Source of the DNA: a virus
Lineage: Duplodnaviria > Heunggongvirae > Uroviricota > Caudoviricetes
DNA length: 64,000 nt
IMG/VR virus record: IMGVR_UViG_3300021255_000114
Coordinates: 32,001-96,000 of that record
Direction: 5' to 3' (one strand)
Of this stretch, positions 1 to 64,000 are shown in pieces (the first letter of the stretch is position 1; each line of letters starts with the position of its first letter). The translations under genes were made by a program, and so were the position numbers. Under the pieces are notes generated by a model. It had not been told where the DNA came from. It searched no databases and saw nothing but the letters and a program-made list of their open reading frames with translations.

Positions 1-295
1 TTTCATATGGTGAAATGTACGCATTATTGATGTATAACGCGGTAAAGGTATTGCTTGAATTCCAAGTTTGACCGGTTGGTTCGACTGTGCCTAAAAGCCT
101 GTAATGATAACCTGTAACTTTGATGATTTTGGGTTGTGTGGAAATTAAAGTGATAGATTCCGATGCCGGAATGAATGTATAGCCTGTGGCGGCATTATCA
201 ATATCTGTAGTCGATGGTTTTTCCATATAATGGTACTCCACACGATCAGTGTTCACATTCTGACTATGGCGTCTGGAGACGTTTGTCTGTGGCAT
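1..295 (-). CDS. Partial ORF running off the window start; probable structural protein carrying the Tyr-rich repeat module
   Basis: Hand-translated from ATG at 295: MPQTNVSRRHSQNVNTDRVEYHYMEKPSTTDIDNAATGYTFIPASESITLISTQPKIIKVTGYHYRLLGTVEPTGQTWNSSNTF..., open to the window edge. TATTTATA lies upstream at 363-356. Confidence 0.7.
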   Translation of the reverse strand, partial: MPQTNVSRRHSQNVNTDRVEYHYMEKPSTTDIDNAATGYTFIPASESITLISTQPKIIKVTGYHYRLLGTVEPTGQTWNSSNTFTALYINNAYISPYE

Positions 296-8525: not shown

Positions 8526-11500
8526 ATGGCAAATAGAACAAATACAACAAGGCCACATTCAGCACCTGGTCTATATTTCAAGGATTCTGTGCAGACCTAC
8601 TCAAGCAAGTCACTTGGAATTACTACTCTTGGTGTTACGGGTGAAACACTTCGTGGTCCTGCATTCCAACCAATTTCAATCAGTAATTGGAGGGAATTCC
8701 AAACCTATTTCGGGGGTACAAGTACCGCCAAGTTCAAGGGCAGCCAATATCCGAAGTATGAACTTCCCTACATTGCCAAAAGTTACCTTGAGCAGAGTAA
8801 CCAACTTGAAGTTGTTCGTGTTCTTGGTTTATCGGGTGTAAATGCCGGTCCGGCTTGGGTTATTACAGCAACAAAACATAAAGTTTTTACTGGCTATGAC
8901 TATGTATTGCTGAGTTCAGAACCATCTGAAGAATGCGCAATTTACACAACACTCCCAAAACCACCATACATCGACGACAATTATCCCGATTACATCAAGA
9001 TTGCCTCGAACCTTGAATGGCATACATTGTGCAGTGCTTGTGACGATACTCGCATTGAGGATGAAGAGAAGCAGGTTTTTGACCTTACAAAAGGTGATAC
9101 AGTTCCTGACGCAAACACATTTACGGAGTATGATTACATCAAAGTCATACAAAAGTGGTTTTATACACCTGTTGACCACACTACAATTACTGATTTCAGC
9201 AAATACGTTACAGTGACACAATTCCCTGAGACGATTTCGGGCGAATCAGAAAAGAACATAAGAATTGCCACAATCGAAAACCCGTCAAGTGATGCTGATT
9301 ATGATTACTATGACTTGGAAAACACCGCTTATTGCTACGAAAAACAAGAAAATTATAACTACTACAAAAAAACGTGGAGATCAGGCGTACAACTTGAAGA
9401 GGAAGATTACTGTGAGGGAAATCGTAACAATATGGTTGTGGCAGTACTCCGTTCGCGTGGAGAACACAAAAAAGCAGCGTTTGTCCGTACACCGACCCAA
9501 GACGACATTGCTAATGGAATTTGCGATGATATCTATAGTTACGACGGCATAGAATATTTTGCAAAAGAGATACGTCTTGAACCTAGCAAATCATTGACAC
9601 TCGGTTCAAGTTGCAATCCGGGATTTTCAACTGTAACGGGTGATTTTACAGTCGACAGTTTCAATTACGGTACATTTACCATTGCCGTTGACACTATCTA
9701 TGGCGAAACAAAATACTACTCAGTATCTTTAAACCCGGGCGAAAAGAATTATATCTACAATGTAATCGGCGGAAATCCTGAAGAGGGTGATGCAGAAATT
9801 TACGTTGAGGAACTTTATGACGTTGCACTTCGCCAACTTATCGACGAAGGTGTGTTCAATGCCATCAACTCAGAGGTTATCAAATATCCTGCAATCAACA
9901 TTCTCCCAAAATTCGCCGACGTTGATGATATTATGACTGATTCGGTTCTCACCAAGAAATATCGCGGTAAACGCTATCTTTACAGCAATGAACTTTCCGA
10001 AGGTATAAAAGTAAGGTATAGCGAGGATGGCGGAAATACATGGTATGAAGGTGACGGCATCAATGGTGTTATTTACACAGTATTCGAGCGTACCAATGCA
10101 GCAACCGGCAAGAAAGAGTATTTCTATGGTGCATATACCGATGCCATTCAGTTCAAATATGAGATTTACGACGGTGAACCTAAAGACGTGGAATGGATTG
10201 AATGCTCGCAAACAGTTACAAACGAACAACAGAATGTCTTCGTGGCAAAACCTGAGTTTTTCGACAAACCTAATACCACGAACCCCGAATACATCAAGAT
10301 AATCACACCAAACGATAATCTTGTCAATGGTGACGATTCGATTGTTGTTGAAAATGGCGTTATTAAAGATGAAACAACCGGCACAGTAATCTCAGAAGAA
10401 AAGGTAACCTATTACCCATTCCATTTTCAGATTACAACAACGCAAACAATCGTTGGCAGAAATTCTGTAAAAATTACATTCCCGAAAAAGGCCGAACTAA
10501 AAGATTTCGAAGTTTATTCATACAGTAACCTTAATCCTAAACTTTATGAGTATGAATGGGACAAGGGAGAGGGTAACACTTTCATTTCAAGAAATGCAAT
10601 TCCAGAACTTGAACCAGGCACCTATGATTTCGTACTCTATACTACAATAGATGGTGATTATACCATCAAGATTGATGACCAGACTGTCACACTTACCGTT
10701 AAGAAGAGTAATGGTGTCAATTATGTGAAGAAAGTTACCGATATCACCGATAGCACAAGAGCAAAGAAGACAACCGAACGTCTTACGGTTTATAAATTCA
10801 GCGCAGACGTCGTTCATGGAAAATTCACGAACTGCGTGAAGGTTCTTGCTGACAATATGATTTATGTCAACAATACTACCGTTGATGATAAACATAATAT
10901 GACAGAGGATGTTTTCCCGATAACACTTGATTTCAACAACTACAAAGAACAGTACAGGTATGCTTCAACACCTTGGATAGTTTCCGAAATTAAAGGTAGC
11001 GCAGAACAGGTACAACTTGCCAAACTGTTCCGCTTCCATACGATTTCAGACGGCAACAATTCATCGCTTGAAGTCAAGATTTCAATTGAGAATATTGACC
11101 CTTCAACCGGTAAATTTGATGTTCTCGTCCGTAACTTTAATGATACTGACCTCAACACCAACGTCATCGAACGCTTTGTTGGATGTACTCTTGTTCCTGG
11201 TGACCCTGACTATATTGCGCTAAAAATTGGTTCATTCGACGAATCATATAATGCAGTTTCAAATTATATTACTGTTGAGGTTATTGAGAATGACACAACC
11301 AAGAATTCAATCCCGGCAGGATTCCTCGGATATCCAATGCGTGACTACAGTGGATTTGCTATCAAAGAGACTGCATGGAAGTACACCAAAATAGATAATC
11401 CAATGGATACATCAGTGTTTGTGAAGGTTGACAGTTTACCGGATACTGTTAAAGATACCGATCCGTGGTTTGTGTATATTGAGAGCGAAACCGGAAATAC

Positions 11501-12998
11501 ATATTACGGAAGAGAATTTGCCATCACATCAAACCCAACGCAGCCGTATTTCAAATTCAACACTGATGTTGATGAAGACATCAAGATCAAGAAACAATAC
11601 TTTGGCGTTTCCGACCTTACGGGAATCGATACCGATGCGTTGACTTATAAAGGTGTTGAGGCTTATAATGAAGTTCCCGCAGGTATGACACCTTGCTTCC
11701 ACCTTGATGCACGCATTCTTAATGGTGTGCCTAACGAGCATGGTGAAATTGAGAACGGCGATATTAAACAAACAGTTTCGGTTGACGGTATTACCGGATA
11801 CAGTTGGGTAACTGTTAACAAGAACATCACCACGAGTGAAGGTATTGAACCTCGTATCGGTTCGGAAAGTGTAATGGCCGGTACAATCTATGAAGACAAG
11901 AAATACCGTAAATTCACTGTGGCATTCTATGGCGGATGGGATGGTTGGGACTATTACAGAACCTACCGTTCGAACACCAATGAATATCGTGCCAAAGAAT
12001 ACAAAGGCTACATTAACAGTGTGAGTGGATATGGCGATATGTTTAACGTTGTTAAAAATCCTGAAGCCTTCAATTTTGATAGTAACCAAAAGGTCATAAA
12101 TTCTGACTACTATGCATATCTCGCAGGTGTCCGTCAGTTTAACAATCCTAAGTCGATTGCAATCAATGTACTTGCAACACCAGGTATTGACTATGTCAAC
12201 AACGGCCAATTGGTAAACGAAGTTATCGATATGGTTGAAGAGGATCGTCAGGATTGTATTTACGTTGTGACTACACCTGACAAACCATTCGGAGCAAGCG
12301 ACTCGAAGGACGATATGTATAATGCCGATGAAGTAGTTGCAAATCTTGAGGATTCAGATATTGACAGTAACCATACAACGACATATTATCCTTGGGTGAA
12401 GTATTTTGATGCAGACAATTCAGACTACATCTACCTTCCAATCACCCGCGACGTCGTTAAATCAATAGCTTTGACTGACAACCAGGCATTCCCGTGGTTT
12501 GCTGCGGCAGGTTGGACTCGTGGCCCGATTTCGGGAGACGCTCCAAAACGCAGACTGAAACAAGGTGAACAGGATACTCTTTATGACGGACGTATCAACT
12601 TCGTTGCAAGTTTCGCCGGCGAAGATTTCGGTGACACTAATGTAACAGACCGTATTTGGGGCGATAAAAACCTCCAGATAGCCGATAACCAACTCAACAG
12701 GCTGTCAGCACGCCGACTCTTGCTCCGCATCAAACGTATGTTACAGACTTCCTGCATTGGTCTCATCTTTGACCCGAACGACAACAACCAAACCAAGGCT
12801 ATCAGGAATTCAGTCGGAAGTGTCCTCGACTATATCAAAGAGAATCGTGGTATTACCGATTGGAGAATCGAAATCGACGATAGCCCGTCCACAACTGATC
12901 AACTCGGACGCGGTGTAACGTATTATATCAAACGCACCCCATTGCTTGAATGGATTTCATTCACGAGTGTCTTAACACCACAGGGTATGGAGTGGTAA
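8526..12998 (+). CDS. Contractile tail sheath protein with large insertions (1490 aa)
   Basis: N-terminal PGLYF...GVTGETLRGPAFQP...EFQTYFGG...VVRVLG; C-terminal INVLATPGID, YYPWV, PWFAAAGWTRG, LYDGRIN, IWGDKNLQ, RRLLLRIK and IFDPND. Confidence 0.93.
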   Translation: MANRTNTTRPHSAPGLYFKDSVQTYSSKSLGITTLGVTGETLRGPAFQPISISNWREFQTYFGGTSTAKFKGSQYPKYELPYIAKSYLEQSNQLEVVRVLGLSGVNAGPAWVITATKHKVFTGYDYVLLSSEPSEECAIYTTLPKPPYIDDNYPDYIKIASNLEWHTLCSACDDTRIEDEEKQVFDLTKGDTVPDANTFTEYDYIKVIQKWFYTPVDHTTITDFSKYVTVTQFPETISGESEKNIRIATIENPSSDADYDYYDLENTAYCYEKQENYNYYKKTWRSGVQLEEEDYCEGNRNNMVVAVLRSRGEHKKAAFVRTPTQDDIANGICDDIYSYDGIEYFAKEIRLEPSKSLTLGSSCNPGFSTVTGDFTVDSFNYGTFTIAVDTIYGETKYYSVSLNPGEKNYIYNVIGGNPEEGDAEIYVEELYDVALRQLIDEGVFNAINSEVIKYPAINILPKFADVDDIMTDSVLTKKYRGKRYLYSNELSEGIKVRYSEDGGNTWYEGDGINGVIYTVFERTNAATGKKEYFYGAYTDAIQFKYEIYDGEPKDVEWIECSQTVTNEQQNVFVAKPEFFDKPNTTNPEYIKIITPNDNLVNGDDSIVVENGVIKDETTGTVISEEKVTYYPFHFQITTTQTIVGRNSVKITFPKKAELKDFEVYSYSNLNPKLYEYEWDKGEGNTFISRNAIPELEPGTYDFVLYTTIDGDYTIKIDDQTVTLTVKKSNGVNYVKKVTDITDSTRAKKTTERLTVYKFSADVVHGKFTNCVKVLADNMIYVNNTTVDDKHNMTEDVFPITLDFNNYKEQYRYASTPWIVSEIKGSAEQVQLAKLFRFHTISDGNNSSLEVKISIENIDPSTGKFDVLVRNFNDTDLNTNVIERFVGCTLVPGDPDYIALKIGSFDESYNAVSNYITVEVIENDTTKNSIPAGFLGYPMRDYSGFAIKETAWKYTKIDNPMDTSVFVKVDSLPDTVKDTDPWFVYIESETGNTYYGREFAITSNPTQPYFKFNTDVDEDIKIKKQYFGVSDLTGIDTDALTYKGVEAYNEVPAGMTPCFHLDARILNGVPNEHGEIENGDIKQTVSVDGITGYSWVTVNKNITTSEGIEPRIGSESVMAGTIYEDKKYRKFTVAFYGGWDGWDYYRTYRSNTNEYRAKEYKGYINSVSGYGDMFNVVKNPEAFNFDSNQKVINSDYYAYLAGVRQFNNPKSIAINVLATPGIDYVNNGQLVNEVIDMVEEDRQDCIYVVTTPDKPFGASDSKDDMYNADEVVANLEDSDIDSNHTTTYYPWVKYFDADNSDYIYLPITRDVVKSIALTDNQAFPWFAAAGWTRGPISGDAPKRRLKQGEQDTLYDGRINFVASFAGEDFGDTNVTDRIWGDKNLQIADNQLNRLSARRLLLRIKRMLQTSCIGLIFDPNDNNQTKAIRNSVGSVLDYIKENRGITDWRIEIDDSPSTTDQLGRGVTYYIKRTPLLEWISFTSVLTPQGMEW

Positions 12999-13539: not shown

Positions 13540-13908
13540 TTATTGTCTTCTGTAAGCGTTTTGATATCGCTCTATAATATCTTTTTTAATGTAATCTATT
13601 ATAACACTATCCGGTTTGCTATAATAATTGTCAGGGAATGGTAATGTACCGAAATCCCAAATAAAGCAATCTTTTGGTGGATATGCCCAACCGCCTTGTA
13701 TTCTCCAAACGCCCCAATCAGGACCGAGGTCTATGGTTTTACCTTCCTTTTTGATTCGTTCATTCTCGGCTCTTTCGCTATCTTGGTGTTTTTGTGCGTA
13801 ATATTGGTCGGCAGTATTGCCATATTCTATTTCAGAAACAATTTCCATTATACTTTCATGTATGAGTTTTTTGAGTTTAGTTTCTGATAGATTAATACTT
13901 TGCTTCAT
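13540..13908 (-). CDS. Hypothetical protein with an LSE..L...IHESI.EIVSE leader (putative head-internal protein)
   Basis: N-terminus MKQSINLSETKLKKLIHESIMEIVSE. Confidence 0.7.
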   Translation of the reverse strand: MKQSINLSETKLKKLIHESIMEIVSEIEYGNTADQYYAQKHQDSERAENERIKKEGKTIDLGPDWGVWRIQGGWAYPPKDCFIWDFGTLPFPDNYYSKPDSVIIDYIKKDIIERYQNAYRRQ

Positions 13909-13922
13909 TTTATATGAATGGG

Positions 13923-14342
13923 TTATTTTTGTTTATCTTGAGATTCAACGGGTTTATCGATAATTTGGAGTATCTTTTTCATAGTACTGTATTCTACTGA
14001 TTCTGCACGATTTGCAAGTTTACCAAGGGCTTTAATAACAGCAACGCGGATATCATCAAGCATACCTTTTACTTCAGGATCCATTACTGCTTCGCTTGGA
14101 AGTGTTCCTTGGATAGGTTGTATATCGCCATCTTGACCTGATTGTTGGGGTTGCTGTGGGGCGACTTCAGGTTCAGGACCACCTGCGCTCGTATCATATC
14201 CTGGATTATCAATTTCCTGTGGATTCATATCGTTATTGAACACCATTTCCATAAGTGTCATTGATTTCTTTTCTTCTTTTTTTGGTTTAGGGTTTTTTAC
14301 ACCATGGAGGTCTTGTTTTATTTCATTAATCAATTGTGACAT
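13923..14342 (-). CDS. Hypothetical protein (LINE/LME motifs, Pro/Gln-rich linker, C-terminal helical hairpin)
   Basis: 139-aa ORF in the minus-strand three-gene island. Confidence 0.75.
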   Translation of the reverse strand: MSQLINEIKQDLHGVKNPKPKKEEKKSMTLMEMVFNNDMNPQEIDNPGYDTSAGGPEPEVAPQQPQQSGQDGDIQPIQGTLPSEAVMDPEVKGMLDDIRVAVIKALGKLANRAESVEYSTMKKILQIIDKPVESQDKQK

Positions 14343-28031: not shown

Positions 28032-31000
28032 ATGGCAAATCCAATAGAAACATTTTCGGATAATACCACTGTTTTAAGGAAAGACGCTCAAAACAGGATT
28101 ATATTTGTTGAACCCAATGATATAAACGGACATCTTAATGGTGTTCCGATTACACCTGACTATACCGATTTTTGTATTAGTTTCGATCTTATTGTTGACG
28201 TGGTTTCACGCATGCGTGCCAACAGTGTTACTATATCGTGTGATACTCCGAAAAACCCTGACAATGATACGAGCCAGCTACAGGCAATGAAAACATATGT
28301 CATATCTTGGTCGTCTAAATATGACCCTGACGGTACACAAAAAAATAACAACCCAAACCAAGTTTCATTCATGGGTGGTGTTCGTTATGGAAAAAGGGAT
28401 TATTTAACCACTTTCTACACTGATACACACTATAATGATTTTAAAAATAAAACAATTGTTGAAGGGCTTGGCGTTGAAAGCGTTAACGTTTCTTTCGAGA
28501 GTTATTATGCACCAACGGTTAAAATCCGTTTTATAGATGTTCGGGGTGCGTCCATATTTGGAAGGGAAGAAGTGCTACATACAGACGAAGTCCTTAAAGA
28601 GGATAGTATTTGGGGATGTTTTTTCACATTTCCATATCCCAAGTATAGACTTCAAATAAAAGGTTTCTATGGACAGGCAGTCACATATCAACTGTGTTGC
28701 ACGGATTTCAGAGCAAATTTCAATTCACAAACCGGAAATTATGAAATTGATATGACATTTCTTGGTTATGATTTTGGATTACTTGCCGATATACCAATAC
28801 AATATCTTATTGCAGCACCATACTGTAATTATGGTAACACAAGGGCGCATTGGGAAAAGGAGAGTGCTTCAAATGACGCGTGGAAAATGTCAGACGGACG
28901 ACCACCAAAAACATTCTACGAAATTAAACAGAAAATAAAGGCTGCGATGGAGAAATACCGTAGCAATGATGAGCAGAATGTAACAACTGAGGAATATGAA
29001 GTAGCGATTGTAAATGAAGAGCGTAAGGCGATAATGGATAAGATGTCTCCATTAGTAAGAGACATAAGCCAATTTTATGCTAATCAAAAAATTCAGGATT
29101 ATGAAAATTTTAGAATAGATTTACAGAATAAACAGAGCGTTGCCGATTCAACCTATGTAGCCCAACAACCGGTTATAAATTTAAACACACAGGACACATC
29201 ATCACTTCCTAGTTTAGATGAGGCACTCGGAATTAAACAAGAAATCAAGGAAGAAAAACTTAATAGAGAGGCGAAAGAATTAAGTCAACTATATAAGGAA
29301 TACAAAGAAAAATGGCCTGAAACTAAATTATCTAAATTAAAAGGATTTCATTTTTTATGTTCTGAAATCGAAAATAATACCTGTAAAGGTGAAGTTGCCG
29401 ACGCTTTGCATTTGTCTATGTATATGCCGATATTTGACAAGGCTTTCCAAGAAGACTACAAAACATTAACAACGGCAGAAACGCAAACACGAACAATTAA
29501 AAATTCAGAAGAACCCGAAAAAGAAAAAATACAGGAGTTAGTTGGTTTTTTACCTAATATAGGCAACGTATTCAGAACTTTATACTGCCATCTTGAGACG
29601 TTTGTCCACATGATATATACATGTGCCGACAATATTTATTCCCAAATAAGGAACAATGAGAGAGGATATGCTAAATTGGGTGTTCCCGGTATTGAGTTTA
29701 CTGACATAAACATCGATTCGATGACGAATGATCAAATGGATCCGTTCCCTGCCATCTATACTTATCAAAAACCGAATAGTCAAGGTAACAACACCGGTCA
29801 AGACGACGCTACTGATGAAGTTCAAGTTGATTCATGGATGGGTGAACTTCCTAAAAAAAATAACAGGGCAATTTGGGAAGAAGAAGTTCTAATTGAAGAA
29901 TTATTCAAGGCCATACTTCACACAAAAATGGATTCAGATGATACACCGGCCAATTTTAATTCAACACAGTTTCCTGTACTACCAAGTGATTTGAATCATA
30001 CAACCATATCTGGTATTGGTTTGAATACAACACCAGATGACCTTGCCGGTTATTTGGCCATACGAGCGGCTTCATTATTTGGAATTAGTGGATATGCCGA
30101 TTCTGAGGCGGAAGAGGTTGGTAAAACAGAGGCTTTCAATTATTTTGAAAGTGTTGCATCCAAAACCGCCATCAAGAACAAAATTTTGGATACATTAGGA
30201 AATGGCAATAAGGCAGATGCACTATATAATATTATACTTTGTGAAGGAGATTATGCAAATGCAAATAAACCACTTACATTTGAAAAGGCAGAGAATCTTA
30301 TTAGGTTAAAAAATACAAATAAATCAAAAAGGCAACCGTTTTTTGTTATAAACAGTAATAAAAACCTGCAATATTGTTATGCTGAGGATGATGCTTCCAA
30401 TGCGTTTGTCCCGTCAAGACTTGCCAATTGGGGGGAATTGAATAGTGATATACTAACCTATCACGGAAGTGCAAATGGTAGTTATTACGCTTTTAAAACT
30501 TTAAGCGGACCAAGCAGTAATATACTATATAAGATACATTCCGACAAGTTGACTGACGTATTGGATGAAGGAGATAAAAGATTCTATGTGAATAATGAAA
30601 TATTCACTGTCTATTATGGTGGTAGTTACGGTGATGGTTCTGTAATTGCTGATAAAGTTGAGGAAATTTACAATAATATGCAAGATGGAAGTGTAAGTCT
30701 TAATGGTTACACGAAAGAATCTGACCCAAATAGATTTAAAACAATCATAAAAAACCATTGGAAAAACATTAAACTTGACCAATATCAATCTGCCTATTAT
30801 TCAAAGTTACAATCATTATACGCTCCACTTGATGAGTATGGTATTGACAAGTCAACCACGGGTATACAGAGCGATGGAACAATAAAAATAGAGAACGGAA
30901 CGACATATTCATTAATTATCAACAAAAATGCTAGTTTTAGTAATGGTAGTTTCAAAAACGGTGATAAGGAAATTTCGGAGGAACAATGCAAGCCGCTTAT

Positions 31001-33626
31001 TCCGGAATTGAGATTGTATTACAACAAAACTAATACTACGATGAACGTGTTTACAACATCTGTTTACTATTTACAAAATGACATAAAATCAATACACAAT
31101 GATAAAAATTTCACATGGTCGTCAAAAGATACAACCATAGAGGCAATGAAGGCACTCCTTTTCCTCTCATCACTTGACTATATGGCTGACACCATACCAA
31201 ATTATCTGAATAACAAAAATTCAGGTAAAATAGAAAACGTTCCTTTATCTATCATTTTATTTCATGGCGGGTTATTATGGAGGAAACGTTTTTATGATAG
31301 AAATGGTTTTGACTCAATGTTATATACCGCAAGTGATGGCACCAAAGTCATTAAAACAATGGCAAAAGACGAAATACCTCTTGTTACCGTAACAGGAACA
31401 ACGTATGCACGAGGGTTTATTAAACCTAATGATAACTATCAATATAAAAAATATTCATTTTTAACCGGAGAAGAAGAACTTGATCCGGCTATTGAAAACA
31501 AGTTAATAGAAAAATTCATTTATTTTTTAAATAATGAATGGAAAACCATTGCTGACAACTGCGAATTGAAGAAAACCGGTGGTAATCTTCTAAAATATTC
31601 TGATTTTAAGGAATTATGCATAAAATCTGGTGGCATAACCAATGACGATTTAAAGACACTCGAAAAAACGTCGTATGTTGGTAAATATTTTTATATTAAT
31701 CGTTTAAATACAGGGAAAGATAACGGCTTAGCGTCCATATTATCTGAGGATAACCAGGCATTGGATACCATCAAGGAAATTTATCTTTCAAGAATAGTTG
31801 TTCAAAGAACTGTTTCATCTTTTACCAACAAGAATGGCTCAATCGCAATAGAACCTAACACACTAAAGAAATACTTAAACGGGTTTGTAAAACAAATTGA
31901 AGAAATTTGCGGTAGTGAAACCGTAAACACATTGAGTAAGAATCCTGAAATTGAAGACAATGAACAGGATAGGGACATTAAACGCTTAATTTATATGTAT
32001 ATTAAGAATATGTGGGATCGTTGGTTCTCTGGTAATAGTGAAAAAACATTTAGTGTTAAGAACTATATGGCAAACACCATATTCATCGATTCCATGTATA
32101 GGAATGTATATGAGCATATCCATATCAATTGCGAGATATTAGAATCTTTGCTTGATGAAACGGACGGCAAGGCAATGGCCTTTAAATTCCTTTCCGATTT
32201 AACAACGAAGCATCATTGTATGTATTTTGCCATGCCCGATTACATTAATCTTGGTGAGCCTAACAGGGATAAAGCGGAAGAAGCCTTATTAACATTGTTC
32301 AATCCAATACCATACAGTAAGATAAATAAAATACAGACTTTTAATCGGTACATTGTGATGTTCACACATAAGCCATCTGAAATAAATGAAAACACCAACA
32401 GTTACAAATATGATAGTTTTGATATATACAGTCACGATGAAAACAAAACCAATATATTACCAACATTTGCGAAACCATGTATAACAGGTGAAAACCTCTC
32501 AGAGCATGACTTACAGTGCACAAGGTATGGATATAATGTACCGGCATTCGGTGTTGAGTTTGGAAGGCAAAATAATGCCATATTCAAAAAAATAAATGTT
32601 GGAATGCAGAACCCCATTCAGACAGAACAGGCGATTAATGCATTGAGTCTCATTGCGAATCGTGGTAGGGGAGCTGGTGAACGTACCATATTCTATGGAC
32701 AGGATTTATATAGTGTATATTCAGGATATTCATATACAGCTACCATTGAAATGATGGGCAATGCACAGATAATGCCGCTCATGTATTTTCAATTATTCAA
32801 TGTACCGATGTTCCGTGGGGCATACATGATATACAGTGTAACACATACAATGCGTCCCGGTGATATGACAACCACAGTGAAGGCAATGAAAATGTCAAAA
32901 CGCACGTTACCGTGGTGTCAGGAATGGTTCGCTCATTACTATTTTGATTCCGAAGGTAATATCATTGACAAGGAGTATGATGATGAATGCGGAAAATTGC
33001 CAGAAGGTATGTGTAAAGGCCGTTTGGCATCTGAACAAAAACTAAAACCATATGAAATAACAAACAATTTTGCAGGCACATTAGCCAAACAGGTTGGTAA
33101 AAATCGTTTTCATAGTAGGGAACCGGAAATGTTAAGAGAAATAAACAATAATGTTGTTGCATTTCAAGTGAGACTTAAATCAACAGAAAAAGATGGTAAT
33201 GGCCAAAACAAAACGATGACAAAATGGATAGTTGTGCATAGACTATTAGAGAGTAGTGTTAGGCAAATTTTTGAAGAAATATACGTCAATACGGATTACA
33301 AATTTAACCCTGGACAATTTTACGGTGAATATGGCAAATTAGGAGAGAAAAAATTTCCTGAAATTCCAAAAGGTGAAAAAATTATCGGTTCTTATGAGTA
33401 TCGTGAGACAAAAAGAGGGAGTCTAAGTAATCATGCTTTTGCTTGTGCAATTGATATAAACCCAGGATACAATCCAATGATAGGGTGTTTAGACCAGTAC
33501 ACAGACGACGATTTGCACATAAGAACCAAAAAACACCCTGTGGTTCAAATATTCGCAAACCATGGATGGGGATGGGGTGGAAGTTACGGTGATTTCATGC
33601 ATTTTAGCCCATTTAACGGCTCATAA
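28032..33626 (+). CDS. Baseplate hub (gp27/VgrG-like) giant protein with a C-terminal M15 peptidase
   Basis: N-terminal LGVESVNV...PTVKIRFIDVRG...FFTFPYP; late YTATIEMMGNAQIMPLMYFQLFNVPMFRGAYMIYSVTH; C-terminal R...SNHAFACAIDINP...FANHGWGWGG...DFMHF (M15 Zn-peptidase SxHxxxxAxD...H). Confidence 0.75.
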   Translation: MANPIETFSDNTTVLRKDAQNRIIFVEPNDINGHLNGVPITPDYTDFCISFDLIVDVVSRMRANSVTISCDTPKNPDNDTSQLQAMKTYVISWSSKYDPDGTQKNNNPNQVSFMGGVRYGKRDYLTTFYTDTHYNDFKNKTIVEGLGVESVNVSFESYYAPTVKIRFIDVRGASIFGREEVLHTDEVLKEDSIWGCFFTFPYPKYRLQIKGFYGQAVTYQLCCTDFRANFNSQTGNYEIDMTFLGYDFGLLADIPIQYLIAAPYCNYGNTRAHWEKESASNDAWKMSDGRPPKTFYEIKQKIKAAMEKYRSNDEQNVTTEEYEVAIVNEERKAIMDKMSPLVRDISQFYANQKIQDYENFRIDLQNKQSVADSTYVAQQPVINLNTQDTSSLPSLDEALGIKQEIKEEKLNREAKELSQLYKEYKEKWPETKLSKLKGFHFLCSEIENNTCKGEVADALHLSMYMPIFDKAFQEDYKTLTTAETQTRTIKNSEEPEKEKIQELVGFLPNIGNVFRTLYCHLETFVHMIYTCADNIYSQIRNNERGYAKLGVPGIEFTDINIDSMTNDQMDPFPAIYTYQKPNSQGNNTGQDDATDEVQVDSWMGELPKKNNRAIWEEEVLIEELFKAILHTKMDSDDTPANFNSTQFPVLPSDLNHTTISGIGLNTTPDDLAGYLAIRAASLFGISGYADSEAEEVGKTEAFNYFESVASKTAIKNKILDTLGNGNKADALYNIILCEGDYANANKPLTFEKAENLIRLKNTNKSKRQPFFVINSNKNLQYCYAEDDASNAFVPSRLANWGELNSDILTYHGSANGSYYAFKTLSGPSSNILYKIHSDKLTDVLDEGDKRFYVNNEIFTVYYGGSYGDGSVIADKVEEIYNNMQDGSVSLNGYTKESDPNRFKTIIKNHWKNIKLDQYQSAYYSKLQSLYAPLDEYGIDKSTTGIQSDGTIKIENGTTYSLIINKNASFSNGSFKNGDKEISEEQCKPLIPELRLYYNKTNTTMNVFTTSVYYLQNDIKSIHNDKNFTWSSKDTTIEAMKALLFLSSLDYMADTIPNYLNNKNSGKIENVPLSIILFHGGLLWRKRFYDRNGFDSMLYTASDGTKVIKTMAKDEIPLVTVTGTTYARGFIKPNDNYQYKKYSFLTGEEELDPAIENKLIEKFIYFLNNEWKTIADNCELKKTGGNLLKYSDFKELCIKSGGITNDDLKTLEKTSYVGKYFYINRLNTGKDNGLASILSEDNQALDTIKEIYLSRIVVQRTVSSFTNKNGSIAIEPNTLKKYLNGFVKQIEEICGSETVNTLSKNPEIEDNEQDRDIKRLIYMYIKNMWDRWFSGNSEKTFSVKNYMANTIFIDSMYRNVYEHIHINCEILESLLDETDGKAMAFKFLSDLTTKHHCMYFAMPDYINLGEPNRDKAEEALLTLFNPIPYSKINKIQTFNRYIVMFTHKPSEINENTNSYKYDSFDIYSHDENKTNILPTFAKPCITGENLSEHDLQCTRYGYNVPAFGVEFGRQNNAIFKKINVGMQNPIQTEQAINALSLIANRGRGAGERTIFYGQDLYSVYSGYSYTATIEMMGNAQIMPLMYFQLFNVPMFRGAYMIYSVTHTMRPGDMTTTVKAMKMSKRTLPWCQEWFAHYYFDSEGNIIDKEYDDECGKLPEGMCKGRLASEQKLKPYEITNNFAGTLAKQVGKNRFHSREPEMLREINNNVVAFQVRLKSTEKDGNGQNKTMTKWIVVHRLLESSVRQIFEEIYVNTDYKFNPGQFYGEYGKLGEKKFPEIPKGEKIIGSYEYRETKRGSLSNHAFACAIDINPGYNPMIGCLDQYTDDDLHIRTKKHPVVQIFANHGWGWGGSYGDFMHFSPFNGS

Positions 33627-33655: not shown

Positions 33656-34192
33656 ATGTCTTGTGAAAGTAATACAGGAAACGTCACATATAAAACCATT
33701 CCAATAGGAGAAAAGGAGAGGTGGAATAATGCTATGACTATAATGAAAAAATTACTTGAAAGTAATTTAGGTTTAAAAGATTTTCAGGCAGCTGCTATTA
33801 CGGGTAATATGTATGCCGAAAGTAGGTGGAATCCAACTTCGTATGTAGCAAGTGATGCCGGCCAGGGTCAATCAGGTGGTTTATGTCAGTGGCATGATGC
33901 AGTTAATGGTAATGGTAGGTTTACAAACTTACTGAATAACGCTAAAACCATGAATAAGACGTGGCAAGACATAGAAGTACAATTAGCATATTTAGTTTCT
34001 GAACTAGATGGAACTGGTCAACATAGTGAGAAAGGGGCGTTGGTTGATTTAAAAAATACAAGTAATATTGAAAATGCAACGGTTTCCTTTTGCACTAAAT
34101 TTGAACGTCCAAAAAATGCCCAAGCAAAGGGACGCGAACGAATAACATATTCAAAGCAGGTTTTGGAAAAATGGAATGCACAAAATAGTTAA
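33656..34192 (+). CDS. Phage tail lysozyme (Phage_lysozyme2-like)
   Basis: AAAITGNMYAESRWNP...GLCQW...R...L...QLAYLVSEL...FERP. Confidence 0.85.
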   Translation: MSCESNTGNVTYKTIPIGEKERWNNAMTIMKKLLESNLGLKDFQAAAITGNMYAESRWNPTSYVASDAGQGQSGGLCQWHDAVNGNGRFTNLLNNAKTMNKTWQDIEVQLAYLVSELDGTGQHSEKGALVDLKNTSNIENATVSFCTKFERPKNAQAKGRERITYSKQVLEKWNAQNS

Positions 34193-35483: not shown

Positions 35484-36308
35484 ATGGCCGTAGATAAGAA
35501 ATACTTAAAGGAATCGAACCTTATGAACGTATACAAACGTATGCGTCAAATAAATGAGTATGTGATAACCAACGGAAACACATTTGAGGCAGACAATATG
35601 CAGCAAGACCCGGATTCCGATCCTACTGACGCAAATATGGGTGGTAATGCAAACACAGCACCCGATATGCAAGCACCGGCCGGTAATATGAATGCTGTCC
35701 CTCAAGACACTAATCTTCCCGCCGACCCAAATATGGGGGATGATATGAATGGTGATATGGCTCCGGCAGAGCCCGACCCAACAATTGGTGCCGAAGCACC
35801 TGAAACACCCGAAAACATTGAAGAACCGGTTGAAGATGTCGATATGGAGGGTGACGAAACAGATATGGCCCATCCTGATGACGAAGTAATTGACATAGAT
35901 GATTTGACCAATTCTCAAGAAGCTTCAGAATATAAAATCGACGGAGTTGACGATAAACTTACGAAATTACTCACGATTGCAAGCAAATTTGCTAAGGCTA
36001 TTGAAGATAACGACAATAAAATCAATGACCTTAAGGCTGAAGTCGAGAGGCGTAACCCGACCGATATTGAACGCATCAATATTCGTTCACAGAACAGTCA
36101 GCCGTTTAGTGTGAACCCGGGGGAATATTGGAATGGTGTGCGTGCAAAGAATCCGAACTATCAAGTCGTGTCAGATAACGAGGTTTCCCCAAACGAGGAA
36201 GACAAACTCTATACAATCACCAATGACGACATTAAAGATTTTAATACAAGGGAGGTTGAGAAGAGCTTTTCGGATTTTCCAAAAGATCTGATGGACTATT
36301 TTAAATAA
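35484..36308 (+). CDS. Acidic hypothetical protein, possibly head scaffold/internal
   Basis: LKE...INEY leader, D/P/M-rich disordered middle and a coiled coil. Confidence 0.7.
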   Translation: MAVDKKYLKESNLMNVYKRMRQINEYVITNGNTFEADNMQQDPDSDPTDANMGGNANTAPDMQAPAGNMNAVPQDTNLPADPNMGDDMNGDMAPAEPDPTIGAEAPETPENIEEPVEDVDMEGDETDMAHPDDEVIDIDDLTNSQEASEYKIDGVDDKLTKLLTIASKFAKAIEDNDNKINDLKAEVERRNPTDIERINIRSQNSQPFSVNPGEYWNGVRAKNPNYQVVSDNEVSPNEEDKLYTITNDDIKDFNTREVEKSFSDFPKDLMDYFK

Positions 36309-50677: not shown

Positions 50678-50941
50678 ATGGCTTGCAATTGCAAAAAGAT
50701 AGCTGAAAATGCCGGTAAATATTCGGATGACGGAAGTGGTCTCGAAGAAGTCAAATATCTCGGCAGAATACCGATAGTATTACTCCGTATCATACTTACA
50801 ATTTTGACTGTCTGTCTAATTATTGTTATATTGCCATTCTTCCTTTTATGGATAATCTTCCGTATGGTGATTGGTAAGGATATAAGCATAAACTTGCGTA
50901 AATTACTGAAAATTAATGAAGAACGAAAACAACAGTTATAG
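50678..50941 (+). CDS. Small membrane protein (CxCK N-terminus, long hydrophobic segment)
   Basis: IPIVLLRIILTILTVCLIIVILPFFLLWIIF. Confidence 0.65.
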   Translation: MACNCKKIAENAGKYSDDGSGLEEVKYLGRIPIVLLRIILTILTVCLIIVILPFFLLWIIFRMVIGKDISINLRKLLKINEERKQQL

Positions 50942-57267: not shown

Positions 57268-60200
57268 ATGCAGGAAATACGCTTAGGCTCAATAGATTCA
57301 ATATTCTCTACAGATAGAGGAAACACAACACACGTTCAGCTGGAACAAACAGCGAAGAAAATTCCGTTGACAAATCTGTCGACAGTTATCGACCAATATG
57401 ATGTTTACAGAAGTGAAGTGTCCGCTTGCAATAAGTACAGGCTGACACTCACCGTAAAACCGTATTGCACTAATGTATTGTTTAATACCTGCACGGAGAT
57501 TGTTAAAGATGATGGCTCTGATGAAATACAGGTTGTGAGGGATAACGCTCCGATAACAATTACTGATACCAAAATAAAGGGGAACATATCAGGTTTAATT
57601 AGTTCCTTAACAAGGGCTTATATGTTAGATAACACCGAATATTCAAGTGAAAATGTGGGTTTTACCTATTATCCTGGTTATGATATATTCGGAAATCACA
57701 TATTGAGGAATTTATCATTTAGACCGATTATTCCACTTGCCGCTAATGTTCACAACAGTACATACAACACCATTGAGGATACAATGCGCACTTTAGAAGG
57801 CAATGATATCAAAATAGTCCCAAGATTTTCGCCGAATGACACTGAATTCATCAACAAACATGTTTACGAGACAACCAATATCCTATCTATGGAGAACGGG
57901 GATTCTGTTGCATCAAATCTTGTGAACGAGAATGGATGGTATGGTTTCTACAACAATTCATCAATCACTCCTAAGAGAATAACAAATACTGTAGCTGAAC
58001 ATGATTCAAATACTGTAACTGAACGTGATTCAAATCACGTTGTAAACAACAAGGGAAATTGTGAGTTTGTTGATATGTATCCCGATAGGACGCTTTATTC
58101 ATTTACACCCAAACTCAATATGCATAAACACAGGCTTGAGAGGAATTGGGATGTGTTTGTCACCTATCCATATAAGAATTTTTACAGACATAACCTTGTA
58201 ACCAACATATACGCTTATGATGTAGAGAGTGAGCAAGCGGCTTATGACAATATTGAAGCCGATGGCCAAACAAATGCACTTCTTATAATGGAGGCTAAAA
58301 GCCAATATTGTAGGAATGGTATGAAGGGTGTTCAGTTTAGGACTTTTTGCAAGCATAACTTACAACAGAACGATAACGTCCTGATTTATTATGCATTTGG
58401 TGATGATACGTCTTTCAAACTTTGCCACGGCACGTTTAGAGTGAACTACATCGGTGACATGAACAATGAAAATAAGGATTATTATTTCACCATTACCAAC
58501 TCTTCCATTTTAGATGAAATATTTGACGGGAGAGTTGCCTCAACCTTCTATGAGAATCCAACCAATGTACCTCCGGCGCATTTTAGGGAGTTAAGCGGAG
58601 AAATAACCGAAATACCTGAGGATATCAACACATCTGATACAAGTTATGAACCCAATATTTGCAGATGGTTTTATAAAGAGATTGAAACAGAGCCGTCAGT
58701 GACTTGGGACAGTCAAAATACAGTTGATATTCTGCCTGTTGATGTTAAAAACGGTCCAATATACGTAAGACAAAAGGAAACAATATCCGGACAATATGTT
58801 TATACGTACTACCATTATGAAAATAATGCATACCAAACACTCCCCGATACATTTAACCCATTATCCGAGGAATTTGGTGATGGGAATACATTCGATAACA
58901 TACCTATCGGCTATGTCACCGATTATGTTAGGGTTCATGCGTACAAATATTATGAAAAATCTTATGAATATTACATACAGAAAAGAGATAAGGTGGATGA
59001 TATCATCAATCAACGGCTCTGCTATAGCATACCGCTCCGATTTGCAAAAATAGTCAATGGAACCAAATGCAAGTACTACATAAGGATGTTCAAGAAACTC
59101 CCCAACCTCAATAAAAGCGTGGAAAATCTAACTAACCACATAGCAATTAACAGAACACGTTTTGAGCAATACATTCAAAGAAACGCAACTAAGGACGGAG
59201 TTAAAATGCGTGATTTTGACCGTGAAATATATCCGCTTGCATTTGCAAAAACCATTTATGCTGATGACATAACGCAATATCAGTTTACGGAAACAATGGA
59301 TATTGCATACATAAGGGATAACCTCGGAAGGCCATTAACCAATTTGTATATCACTATTGTTAAAAAGAATGTTGGGTACAAGGAATGGTATGGGCCGCTT
59401 AAGCAATACACCGACTATACAGAAAACAACAAAACACATAGGATTGAATTCTCCCATTGTTTCGGTAAAGTAACGAGTGGCCTAGATTTTATGTGCAAAG
59501 AAGGCGATGATTCTGAAATCATCCGCAAGACAAAAGGTTTCTTATCCGATGCAAGGCTTATAACAAATGCAATGAACGTAACAAACTTAGGACAGCCGTT
59601 GGAATTTTGGGGTGATGTTCACCTTGACACAAGCAAAATAACCGATGGTATTCTTGAGGATGATGAACTCTTCTTTGGTGATGTTGTCGAATACAACCCA
59701 ATGCAGGTGGCGGAAACCACATTATCTGATGTACAGTTCAGGTTTAATACGGCGCAACGCGAAAACGGTGATTCAAATGATTACACCTTTACCTATAAGG
59801 AAGTTATTTCAGATGATTATGGGTTAAAGCGTTACCGGAATAATAATTGTGGATTTGCTACGGAGGAGCACACTAATGAACGTAGCCTTATTTGTCCTGA
59901 AGGCTATTACTATAAAGCTCATTACCCAATCGGAGTTAGGGCGTTTGCAAATACAGTAAAACAAGCCTCACATTATTCAGTCTTGCTTGAACATGCAGAA
60001 CCAGTACAGATGGAAGGTATTTTCATTAGAATCATTACCAGAAACAATCACGGTTATGCTGTAGGCAGAAAAGCTTTTATTTGCAATGACTCTGAAGGGA
60101 TATGGTACAATACTCAAATTGTATATGTTGATTCAAAAACAAGTTTCATAATCAAACCAATCAGTAAAGATATTGAGGCTTATGAAAACAAGCCGTATCT

Positions 60201-60537: not shown

Positions 60538-62468
60538 AATATGAAGTCAATTACCGAGATTTACTAACCGATAGTGTCAATATCCCTATTATCAACTACG
60601 AAATGGAGGATGATGCTGATAATGAGAACATCCTCAATGTTACATGTTATTATGGTGATGATATCAGTATTGGCCCGGAAACACCAATAACCATCACAAA
60701 ATACTATGACGTCGAATTGGCTTCTTCGGATGTTTCAGATACTAATCTTGTGTCAGTTTCCTCTCAAATAACGGAGGTTAACACGAATTTCAGATACTTT
60801 TCTTTCAATCTTGGTAAATATTTTAACCTAAAAATAAGCGAACTCCAAATAGAAATACGTGACAATCAACCATATCTTAGGTTTATCTTCGAAGATTTAC
60901 ATTTTTTCAATAGTTGGGATGAGCCAATTACGTTTTATGTGAAATTTTTAGGCGATGACGGCGTTTTTTATGAAAAAACCTTTGAGGATTGTATGTGGGA
61001 GAATGAATACACATTAATGTGGAAATATGTGAACGACAGTCCTGATATTGAAAACTTTATGTGTAGTGTATTTCATGGTGACACATATGAATTTGTGGGA
61101 TATGAAGGAAATCCTGATTCGGTTGTTGTTGATGAGGTGCCTGTACAAGCGTGTTTTACAGATGAGCACTATATTAAAAAACCTGTAGCCATTGGTTGTG
61201 ATAACCGTTACGAATATTACGAAAAAACATGCAATGACGGTGACATAAATGGTCTATCAACCTATAGGGAACAATTCATTAGCGATTTTGATGTTTATGC
61301 CACAATCGGCCAATTTAAGTTGAATGTTCCTTTATCACAAATGCATGATGTAACACTCCAACAGGAGGACAACATTATGAATCGTTTTGTTCATGATGAA
61401 ACAAGGCGTGCAATCAATAGTGTTGTTGAAATGGAAAAGTTTGTTTATCACCCTGTATTTCAAATAGAGCCATCTAACCCAAACGACTTTCGGACAGAGG
61501 ATATATACAAAATAAAATTCAATCTTCATTTTAGACAACATAGGGGTGATGATTGGACAGTAAATGACAATTCCTATTGGAATGGTGTCAATAACGAAAC
61601 GGTGCAGCTGGAAGAAATGATGGATTCTACCATCGGCACACCATATTTTTCGTATCACGAGGGCAATTGGGCTAAAAGTAGGCAATCCGACCTTTTATCA
61701 TATCTAGGTTTTACAAATGCTGATGTAAAATATCAGAAAAATAAATTGAAGAAATCCTTTTTGCGTATCTCCATATATGATAGCGACAACCCTCTAATTC
61801 AGAATATGGTAGCTTATTCAACCGTATTTATGGATGGCGGCGCATTATTCAGTAAGTTTATGAATAACACAATGACAACAGGCTATGCTATTTCGGAAGG
61901 TGAGCCTAATAATACGTTTATGGGAGCAAAAGTCAATATGGAATACGCACCGGATAACTATCAGAACATTCCTGACGAAGATTTAGAGAATCATAGACTG
62001 TCATCACAAATTGTGATTTCGGACACATACACTTCCAAAGCATCAAGTGAAGGTTTCAATTTCTATATGTGGGTTGACAATGATAGTGGCAATATTCCAT
62101 CTGATTTATATATGAAGGTTGAATTTAATCATGCAGGATATGGAAGAATACTACCTTTCATGATGCCCTTCTATGATTATAAAAAAGAAGGTAAGTACGG
62201 CATCAAAACATTTGAAGAAATAGTTGCAGATTGGCGAGACGGACGTGGGTATGGTATTAGGAAATACTTGAAATACAGTTATATTCACCTAAAATGCAGG
62301 TATGATAAAGAAAAAGAGAAACATGTTTACTATTTAGACCCAGATACATATGGGCCATATGCCTATTATAGACATGAAGGGCAAAACGATACGTCGCCAA
62401 ATGAAATGGAACTTAATTTATACGAAGCAAAACTAACATTTTTGAACGAAAACGATGAAACAGTATAG
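60531..62468 (+). CDS. Putative structural protein (645 aa)
   Basis: Overlap-coupled in the baseplate operon; KKSFLRISIYDS...LYMKVEFNHA; carries one Tyr-rich module. Confidence 0.6.
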   Translation: MLKYEVNYRDLLTDSVNIPIINYEMEDDADNENILNVTCYYGDDISIGPETPITITKYYDVELASSDVSDTNLVSVSSQITEVNTNFRYFSFNLGKYFNLKISELQIEIRDNQPYLRFIFEDLHFFNSWDEPITFYVKFLGDDGVFYEKTFEDCMWENEYTLMWKYVNDSPDIENFMCSVFHGDTYEFVGYEGNPDSVVVDEVPVQACFTDEHYIKKPVAIGCDNRYEYYEKTCNDGDINGLSTYREQFISDFDVYATIGQFKLNVPLSQMHDVTLQQEDNIMNRFVHDETRRAINSVVEMEKFVYHPVFQIEPSNPNDFRTEDIYKIKFNLHFRQHRGDDWTVNDNSYWNGVNNETVQLEEMMDSTIGTPYFSYHEGNWAKSRQSDLLSYLGFTNADVKYQKNKLKKSFLRISIYDSDNPLIQNMVAYSTVFMDGGALFSKFMNNTMTTGYAISEGEPNNTFMGAKVNMEYAPDNYQNIPDEDLENHRLSSQIVISDTYTSKASSEGFNFYMWVDNDSGNIPSDLYMKVEFNHAGYGRILPFMMPFYDYKKEGKYGIKTFEEIVADWRDGRGYGIRKYLKYSYIHLKCRYDKEKEKHVYYLDPDTYGPYAYYRHEGQNDTSPNEMELNLYEAKLTFLNENDETV

Positions 62469-64000
62469 ATTTGACACAAGCATAGAACCCATGATATCCA
62501 GGATACCGAGTATGTTTGCATATCTTGAATTCAATGATGATTGGACAACCACGTTGCATCCGGCCAGTGACTCCCCCAATGGTTCTTGGGGTAAAGTGGT
62601 TGAAAATATCACTTTGCCTTGCGGTATCAATTTATACACCTACGTTATTGCCGAAGAGCCGACACCATACCTATGGAATGAAGGCAATACCTTTCCGACG
62701 AATGCGGATATAGAGAATGAATACGCGATAAACGCTTCAGAATACATTCGCAGAGTAGAGGGTTGCCAATATGTGGACGAGGAATATAACAGATTGTATA
62801 CTTATACTGAATATGATTCGTTTCCTGAAGAGGTTACTACCGGAATGCCTGAACGTATAAAATCACCTGAGTTAGATAGACTTGGAAATTATGTGATGGA
62901 TTGTGATGGAAACAAAATATACAAGTATTATCACAAGGAAGTATCATATATATACTACAAAAAGCAGCACCTTTTACTTGAAGGCAGTACATACACTTAT
63001 AGAACCCTCATAGATTATTATTACAGATATAAAGACATTTTACCCGCCGGTCATAATTTTATTGTTTTCATGGAGAAGGCTATTGGCAAAGTCAAAGTTG
63101 ATAAAGCATTGCTTCACATGGAGGATTATTCAAATGTTCCGGACTATCTTTACCTTGGATATGTCAAATTAATGATAGAGAAATATAAGAAATATCATCG
63201 GATTTGCGAATATTACAGAACACATTTTATAAATTTAGGCAAGCATGATGATAAACTTTTTGAAAAATGCAAGTATTATGAGTCAATTGGCGGGGATAAG
63301 TTCCTAAAATATCTTGAAACCCTTTTGCGAACACTGAACAAAGTTGCCGCCGAATATTTTTGTTATGCCGAACACGCCGATCATCAACTGCAAATATCAG
63401 TCAACGTTCCGTTATTTCAGACGAAGAATGATTTAGGGTATTTATCAACGTATTTGAATGAGTTTTCACCGGGAATACATGTCCGCCACGGTGAATTGGT
63501 GACTTACAATGGCAGAACATACATCTGTGTATTGAATCGTTTTCAAACTGGCGGTGTAAACTATCAATATTGCCTTTGCAATGGCGATTTGTATGTTCTA
63601 TCGGCAAATACATATAATAAAGTGGGGTTTGGTAAGGTTTTATTGCCTACATTACCATTGGTTATATATAATGGAAACACGTTTATTATGTTCGCCGGTG
63701 AATACTACATGTGGAGTAATGGAGAATATAAGAAAATTGATGTTGTGGAGTATTGTAGTGGTAAATGGAATGAGAACCTTGAAGTAAATGAATTTGATAC
63801 ACAGCATTTCGTATTACTATCCGAATATACCTCAAAAAACGCCTCTGCTTTGTCAATTCCTGAAAAGAGCGCATTGCCTATGAGTGATGAATGGTACAAT
63901 CAGGATAATGCATATGGGAATCACTTCCAAATCTATATAACAGTCTCGCATATCCCACAGCACTTTATTTATAAGAACATAAAAAAAGGTGATGTCTTCT
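62455..64000 (+). CDS. Partial large putative structural protein running off the window end (absent from the ORF track)
   Basis: ATG at 62455: MKQYRFDTSIEPMISRIPSMFAYLEFNDDW... The frame is open where checked at both ends and contains nested Tyr-rich modules. Confidence 0.75.
   Translation, partial: MKQYRFDTSIEPMISRIPSMFAYLEFNDDWTTTLHPASDSPNGSWGKVVENITLPCGINLYTYVIAEEPTPYLWNEGNTFPTNADIENEYAINASEYIRRVEGCQYVDEEYNRLYTYTEYDSFPEEVTTGMPERIKSPELDRLGNYVMDCDGNKIYKYYHKEVSYIYYKKQHLLLEGSTYTYRTLIDYYYRYKDILPAGHNFIVFMEKAIGKVKVDKALLHMEDYSNVPDYLYLGYVKLMIEKYKKYHRICEYYRTHFINLGKHDDKLFEKCKYYESIGGDKFLKYLETLLRTLNKVAAEYFCYAEHADHQLQISVNVPLFQTKNDLGYLSTYLNEFSPGIHVRHGELVTYNGRTYICVLNRFQTGGVNYQYCLCNGDLYVLSANTYNKVGFGKVLLPTLPLVIYNGNTFIMFAGEYYMWSNGEYKKIDVVEYCSGKWNENLEVNEFDTQHFVLLSEYTSKNASALSIPEKSALPMSDEWYNQDNAYGNHFQIYITVSHIPQHFIYKNIKKGDVF

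Follow-up and report, generated by a model that had tools for sequence, protein, structure and literature searches.

The window, the whole 64,000-nucleotide stretch of DNA that was analysed (G000:C1:32001-96000), belongs to a virus record of 372,793 nt (G000) that has direct terminal repeats and is rated complete (~372.8 kb). It contains a tail sheath gene with three insertion sites (Table 1), and a T4-type baseplate gene (PF12322) lies near this ORF. Pfam gave no match on the sheath or on its insert. Relatives of the sheath match PF04984 and PF17482, which together with its PHROG 23 match places the gene among the contractile tail sheaths (PHROG 23/PF04984). Further along the window, an 1864-aa protein (28032-33626) carries an M15 peptidase domain at its C-terminus (E 3e-14) and is followed by a 178-aa ORF (33656-34192) that by eye has the look of a tail lysozyme. 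The two are likely the cell-wall-degrading pair of the baseplate hub. Several acidic ORFs (13540-14342 and 35484-36308) have a common N-terminal pattern, LxE..L..LI.E, which recurs in L001 and around G000 366-371 kb and may mark a paralog family. Genes just outside the window encode BACON and Listeria-Bacteroides repeat domains, which suggests a host among the Bacteroidota.

At least half of the sheath-gene words were present in six sequencing runs from two bovine-gut studies; a possible source sample was left out of this count, and the small-share runs X16-X20 were not used. In X3 and X4, which belong to separate and independent bovine-gut studies, one contig each covers the whole sheath gene, without gaps and with 41 and 49 differences respectively. 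Because single contigs cover the entire gene and seven relatives have the same layout, the sheath insert is real and not an artefact of assembly.

Each insertion site holds copies of a small tyrosine-rich unit of ~40-55 residues (~45 in the sheath copies) with four short strands. From the sequence and the strand list of the model, the unit reads b1 (G-Y-x-Y-x-x-L/I), a loop, a short b2, a proline loop, b3 (P-x-Y-I-x-V), a hairpin and b4 (Y-x-Y-Y-E-K/L). Mean column identity among the copies is 22%. A preliminary description of this DNA had read three opening halves and, after them, three closing strands in the first insert, and had pointed to an intact, un-nested copy elsewhere in the sheath. 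The motifs it quoted do lie in frame in the sheath ORF where it had placed them, and the order of the six parts was confirmed. The openers A, B and C start at 8895, 9015 and 9156, the closers at 9297, 9327 and 9351, and the intact copy is the unit at site 3.

Table 1. Tyrosine-rich units and their carrier genes, in window positions
Feature	Position	Strand	Basis or remark
Tail sheath gene, 1490 aa, three insertion sites	8526..12998	+	PHROG 23, E 5e-36; tblastn matches to annotated sheaths
Site 1, opener A, outer copy (b1-b2-b3)	8895..9005	+	HHalign 95%; model strands E8-17, E26-28, start of E44-55
Site 1, opener B, divergent middle copy with CxxC	9012..9152	+	strand pattern in the model; HHalign score 16.1
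Site 1, complete innermost copy C: opener, empty hairpin, closer C' (9297-9320)	9153..9320	+	HHalign 79% / 35%
Site 1, closer B'	9327..9347	+	9 residues past C', 9 ahead of A'; within strand E147-177
Site 1, closer A'	9351..9371	+	closer PSSM score 13.2; strand E147-177
Site 2, single unit with cargo in the hairpin (opener 10149-10304, closer 10716-10733)	10149..10733	+	HMM 14.1 bits, positions 3-38
Site 3, intact un-nested unit	11373..11519	+	site 60-77 aa in 15 sheaths, at most 50 aa in the rest
Pair of complete units (58663-58824, 58825-58965), enclosed by an outer opener and closer seen by eye	58543..58983	+	ORF 57268-60537
Single unit	61083..61232	+	ORF 60531-62468
Two-deep nest, by eye	62629..62970	+	ORF starting at 62455 (G000 94455-96902); HMM envelope residues 59-172, 10.7 bits
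Two-deep nest that leaves the window: opener A (113-244) and, in part, inner unit B	1..244	-	ORF G000 31114-32301

The unit at site 2 is a fifth sheath copy, beyond the four of the preliminary description, which also does not list the copies outside the sheath. Its hairpin holds a beta-rich domain of ~135 aa (10305-10715) for which no Pfam match was found. The nearest Atlas families were Big_5 and CopC at 0.77-0.79, below a usable score and a lead only; the cargo domain is possibly Ig-like. Among the matches listed, 11 relatives have the site 2 unit with an empty hairpin. Tyrosine makes up ~10% of the site-1 inserts vs 6-7% of the sheath core, and aspartate plus glutamate 16-20% vs 14-16%. Compared with a strain that is 96-97% identical, pN/pS of the insert was 0.33 (8 nonsynonymous and 6 synonymous codons); such purifying selection would also result if the insert simply has to fold.

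Homology of the site-1 parts was assessed by three tests, none of them trained on site 1. An HMM of 15 un-nested site-3 units matched opener A with 10.1 bits, vs a best score of 8.8 in 1000 shuffles. The match covered model positions 3-40 of ~47, the last strand being absent. An opener HMM was built from 61 non-sheath units, in which b1 reads G-Y-x-Y-V-E-L/I and b4 reads G-Y-T-Y-Y-E-K/L with matching column frequencies. It scored A at 18.7 bits and C at a weak 5.4 bits (best of 500 shuffles 8.8), and opener B was undetected by this HMM in HMMER. Among the matches listed, the same HMM exceeded the shuffle null in 28 of 32 unit-bearing sheaths and found a third-level opener in 11 of them and a second-level opener in none of the 32. 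HHalign against a 14-row non-sheath profile gave probabilities of 95% for A (columns 1-43 of 56), 35% for C, 9% for B and 24% for the closer block (columns 45-54). As a control, 53 windows from the remaining sheath were aligned to this profile, and the best reached 3.7%. Copy B, with a score of 16.1 vs 13.75 for the best control, was above all 53. In these alignments the openers match the unit minus its final strand, and the closers match that final strand. Copy C has counterparts in relatives, with scores of up to 30.5 bits. Judged by sequence, all nested parts are copies of a single unit, with homology that is strong for A, moderate for C and weak for B. The assignment of B, weak in this respect, relies on the identical strand pattern of the predicted structure.

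AlphaFold2 was run on window positions 8862-9443 with an alignment of 10 rows. The insert was modelled with a mean pLDDT of 85.3 and a pTM of 0.65, and the confidence blocks were 84-95 across residues 11-170. The outgoing chain forms strands E8-17 (A b1), E26-28, E44-55 (b3 of A joined to b1 of B), E72-74, E92-104 (b3 of B joined to b1 of C), E116-118 and E132-136 (C b3). All three closers lie within one unbroken strand of 31 residues, E147-177. From strand continuity and model confidence, the closing strands are predicted to pair in reverse order, A with A', B with B' and C with C'. At ~3.3 A per residue each level would measure an estimated ~3 nm, and three levels ~9 nm.

The prediction was repeated for the 534-aa insert of relative P0023, for which the expected parse was written down before the run. 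With 3 informative alignment rows, the model shows E57-69, E100-113 and E144-156 as fused strands, together with a return strand of 45 residues, E471-515. The outer three levels were in confidence blocks of 58-88 and residues 481-510 in blocks of 70-88; residues 156-479 (levels D-H) had a pLDDT below 50, with a mean of 43. The closers are 320 residues away from the openers, and the outer three levels are folded as in the sheath of the window. The confident placement of such remote closers points to packing on the N-terminal openers, and another explanation is hard to find. Fold searches with the three-deep model gave best values of E 1.4 (Foldseek, PDB), E 0.43 (Foldseek, BFVD) and Z 2.7 among 48,161 chains (VIA). 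The hybrid-motif (SBHM/HABAS) domain was not among the VIA or Foldseek matches to this query, and absence of a match in these searches is not proof of a new fold.

Variation of the insert was followed in sheath relatives. Of 2850 homologs found, 120 were listed, and with the sheath of the window 121 were compared. Among these listed matches, site 1 is at most 40 aa long in 77 sheaths, 62 aa in 1 and above 100 aa in 43, of which 32 carry the unit and 11 another insert. The latter (P0078, P0084, P0098, P0104, P0110, P0111, P0113, P0115, P0117, P0118 and P0121) are a sister group with a different insert of 220-300 aa, whose ends show no more than a faint opener and closer. Counted by eye, there are two levels in P0014-17, P0019, P0025 and L001, and two with a tip domain in P0020, P0021 and P0024. 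Three levels are present in P0001 and P0003-8, with a tip domain in P0009, P0010 and P0018, and four with a tip domain in P0026-28, P0030 and P0031. P0023, P0029 and P0032 probably have about seven to eight. Seven relatives with 49-56% identity keep the layout of the window's sheath. In P0017 an entire unit sits in the first loop of A, a second entry site. The hairpin of copy C holds an extra domain in P0009 and P0010; cargo in a tip hairpin is also seen at site 2 of P0001 and in P0020, P0021 and P0024. Most copies have an empty tip, and cargo display is thus not the sole role of the stalk. The cysteines of copy B at site 1 (window 9018-9041 and 9333-9335) and of the site 2 unit (10191-10205) are conserved and co-occur across relatives, and are a possible disulfide or metal site, inside a stalk or between stalks.

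A FastTree phylogeny of the C-terminal sheath core, built from 120 rows without the fragment P0008 and rooted at the midpoint, placed all long inserts in one clade (support 1.0), together with three short ones. Since 77 of the 121 sheaths among the matches listed lack the insert, 3 of them inside this clade, the insert is dispensable. The two-deep P0014, P0017, P0019 and P0025 sit inside the three-deep group. Both C and C' are absent from them and were probably lost together. As tip-ward growth predicts, the outer levels appear, by sequence comparison, to be more widely shared than the tips. Among the matches listed, the last two detected closers are at most 30 aa apart in 24 of 32 sheaths, and in 23 of these 24, rows that are not independent, the gap is 9, 18 or 27 residues.

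The preliminary description had proposed that copies entered the same loop of earlier copies, as A[B[C]B']A'. The three checks it suggested all gave the expected outcome. The outgoing strands are fused and the return strand is continuous in the model, a result repeated in P0023. Relatives have 0, 2, 3, 4 and more levels at site 1, with opener and closer lost together. The similarity among the copies holds, strong for A (18.7 bits) and weak for B (HHalign 9%), and the site-3 units match opener A. With the order A1-B1-C-B2-A2 seen in two models and opener and closer lost jointly, we put the probability that the site-1 insert is nested at about 0.93.

The spread of the unit through the genome was scanned with an HMM trained on the sheath site-2 and site-3 units only (1206 ORFs, null2 off). 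Nine of the 1206 ORFs were matched at E up to 0.034, the next value being 0.27. Besides the sheath, they comprise three genes between 17.6 and 32.3 kb of G000 and another five between 89 and 108 kb. All lie in regions of tail, baseplate or fibre-like character that adjoin BACON and InlB B-repeat genes. The non-sheath copies are single, tandem or nested, and some have a cargo domain at the tip. At the site in G000 31114-32301, P0145 has one unit and P0139, P0142 and P0156 have two nested units. No PHROG structural match was obtained for the eight non-sheath ORFs, the sheath having the only firm virion annotation; from their context they are probably virion genes. No clear copy was seen in non-structural genes. 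Two low matches in unrelated ORFs (12.6 and 11.6 bits) were doubtful on inspection, and so was an additional unit at window 55362-55523 (3.1 bits) in the 2116-aa ORF 50916-57266. The cluster at G000 17.6-32.3 kb (L002:3629-18301) consists of long Thr/Gly/Asn-rich fibre-like ORFs on both strands without family match; two of them have a duplicated block of ~60 aa in common, and three carry the unit. Genes with InlB B-repeat, Listeria-Bacteroides repeat and BACON domains follow one another at G000 101.7-108.7 kb (L003:7693-14745), and one of these genes joins the tyrosine-rich unit to a weak BACON match.

A domain-library search returned only a PHROG match at E 0.006, no NCBIfam or Pfam family (E up to 1) matched more than 1 of 26 unit copies, and the best PDB sequence match was at E 2.6. 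The best Atlas matches (0.87-0.89) were all unnamed. Mtd_N (Atlas 0.84) was set aside because its score is at chance level. The sheath domain-II-like PF17481 module (~95-105 aa) was also rejected; the unit is about half as long, and no match was found at E up to 0.1 or 1. A profile search of 1.84 billion representatives at E up to 0.001 yielded 27 proteins, and the 26 new ones comprise 22 relatives of G000 ORFs and 4 others. A word search gave 17 proteins, mostly or all from the same phage group, and an insert-only search gave 3. Cultured phages had no match to three units (tblastn, E up to 1), and a viral-contig scan with query A6 had none. Database matches are almost confined to this phage group, as read with a 51-position profile of limited reach. 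Searches of open-access main texts met neither the unit nor a self-nested unit within a sheath. The preliminary description did not recognise the unit as a named domain, and none was found for it in Pfam, PHROG or NCBIfam; PDB and BFVD gave no match.

For the origin of the nest, we propose that the unit is copied into its own final b3-b4 hairpin. With a guest in this hairpin, b3 of the host would run on without a break into the guest's b1, while successive b4 strands would stack 9 residues apart into one long strand. The resulting fold would be a thin rod zipped by a single long return strand. Since its ends should lie side by side, the unit could enter surface loops of many virion proteins and also itself; close termini are described as a general requirement for inserted domains in the part of PMC13114784 that treats them. 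The near-identical 7-residue motif in b1 and b4 means that recombination between the DNA coding for them could turn tandem copies into nested ones. Such a crossover might be the integration of a looped-out copy, or an unequal exchange with a 27-nt duplication. We suggest this route tentatively, at somewhat less than even odds; the alternative is plain illegitimate insertion followed by selection for register.

The rod would stand out from the tail, serving as a spacer with weak adhesive properties, and could carry other domains at its tip, held at a distance from the sheath. Being mildly acidic and rich in aromatic residues, the stalk might bind weakly to glycans of the host cell or the gut, although the tyrosines may serve core packing rather than be exposed. 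A function in display or adhesion appears somewhat more probable than any lack of it. PMC9230969, as far as it covers accessory sheath domains, places them on the side that faces away from the tube and proposes that they contribute to adhesion or stability. The fullest version of our proposal is doubtful and is offered as speculation. It holds that the unit is a new minimal fold with look-alike end strands, extended recursively by ordinary recombination into an evolvable telescopic mast of ~3 nm per step and up to ~20-25 nm. Rumen jumbo phages would cover their sheath, baseplate and fibres with such masts and use them to hold out exchangeable binding domains at a tunable distance.

Rather than being nested, the insert could consist of repeats in tandem or permuted order, with an unrelated tyrosine-rich strand behind them. 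b1 resembles b4, so other pairings can be imagined, and tandem pairs of the unit are present in other genes. This is nevertheless very improbable, as the return strand is continuous in two independent models, opener and closer are lost jointly, and the openers lack exactly those last model columns that the closers match. Rickettsia palindromic elements are coding palindromic elements inserted in genes. A translated selfish DNA element of this type would fit the similar size and the in-frame insertion in many unrelated genes. The 18 unit-coding stretches had a mean folding z of -0.2 (range -2.0 to +1.6), however, and among 8035 six-frame G000 segments no out-of-frame, antisense or intergenic copy exceeded 9.0 bits (best reversed decoy 7.1). 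With neither hairpin-forming DNA nor copies outside reading frames found, the element is largely refuted and the least probable of all the readings considered.

The other alternatives accept the nest and differ on its role. Under near-neutral accretion, a self-folding unit is tolerated in surface loops, each copy supplies a new tolerant hairpin, and depth drifts with no advantage to the phage. Depth does vary freely among sister lineages, empty sites persist or return, the tips are mostly empty and the copies are divergent (22% mean column identity). At least nine genes and three sheath sites, however, retain the unit even at the cost this brings to a protein needed in many copies, non-structural genes showed no clear copy, and some lineages have gained cargo at the tip. 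We hold such drift to be unlikely. Distinctly less probable is an outer brace, in which stalks joined through cysteines (disulfide or metal) would cross-link sheath subunits or virion parts and stabilise the particle. Among the matches listed, closer B' has a cysteine in 13 of 24 sheaths, all with at least two cysteines in opener B, and 9 of the 11 sheaths without it have at most one there. A further cysteine in B at site 1 co-occurs with the cysteine of the site 2 unit, both being missing in P0018, and a bracing role is among the proposals for accessory sheath domains in the relevant part of PMC9230969. Against the brace, the 13 cysteine-bearing sheaths form one clade and so represent one event, P0022, P0070 and P0028 are exceptions, and most copies in other genes have no cysteine. 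We favour the spacer and weak adhesin over both neutral accretion and the cysteine-linked brace.

Repeat proteins nearly always extend head to tail, and the sheath unit extends from inside. With its small size and constant register, it offers a simple case in which to test how recursive insertion comes about, how it folds and how it determines the length of a rod. For the virions of uncultured rumen jumbo phages it is a further surface module, so far unmodelled, that may bear on their attachment. Even if the nest is neutral, the sheaths are a natural series, from 0 to ~8 levels, of insertion begetting insertion. The telescopic mast, if true, would also give protein design a natural beta-zipper rod of extendable length. 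Nesting may also be known from giant flagellins; the open-access literature searched gave no account of it.

Among known systems, the contractile sheaths of T4 (gp18), diffocin (CD1363) and DSY3957 come closest in setting; their domain organisation is likened to a Russian doll in the part of PMC6088184 that deals with it, and multi-domain type 3 sheaths of jumbo phages are treated in PMC9230969. On the evidence of these portions, the sheath as host, the nesting of extra domains off the core and the construction of some domains from outgoing and returning parts of the chain are alike. The Russian-doll sheaths are described there as nesting different folds, often Ig-like, whereas the ~45-aa unit nests within copies of its own kind, in a fixed 9-residue register, with variable depth and in other genes as well. 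Ig-like accessory domains of phage virions are promiscuous (Fraser et al. 2006, as cited in PMC9230969, in the section consulted). Like them, the unit is an optional module across structural proteins (here 9 of 1206 ORFs, the virion roles of 8 being probable from context). Weak adhesion to carbohydrates is proposed for them in that section, and for the stalk it may be supposed by analogy. They are beta-sandwiches of ~90 aa, in contrast to a self-nesting loop insert of 40-55 aa, which had no Ig-like Pfam match in 26 unit members and which can carry a possibly Ig-like domain as cargo. The closest parallel in principle is Si3 of the cyanobacterial RNA polymerase subunit RpoC2, for which the portion of PMC13114784 on this subunit describes recursive nesting to six levels, hybrid-motif domains included. 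Recursive insertion, including that of homologous small beta domains, is alike in the two. As presented there, Si3 belongs to a cytoplasmic enzyme, unlike the unit, which occurs across many virion genes and is at or below the 50-200 residues given in the same text as typical for inserts. The principle of self-nesting is thus already known from RpoC2 Si3; new here are the unit itself, its small size, the fixed 9-residue zipper register, the look-alike ends and the proposed use as a cargo mast.
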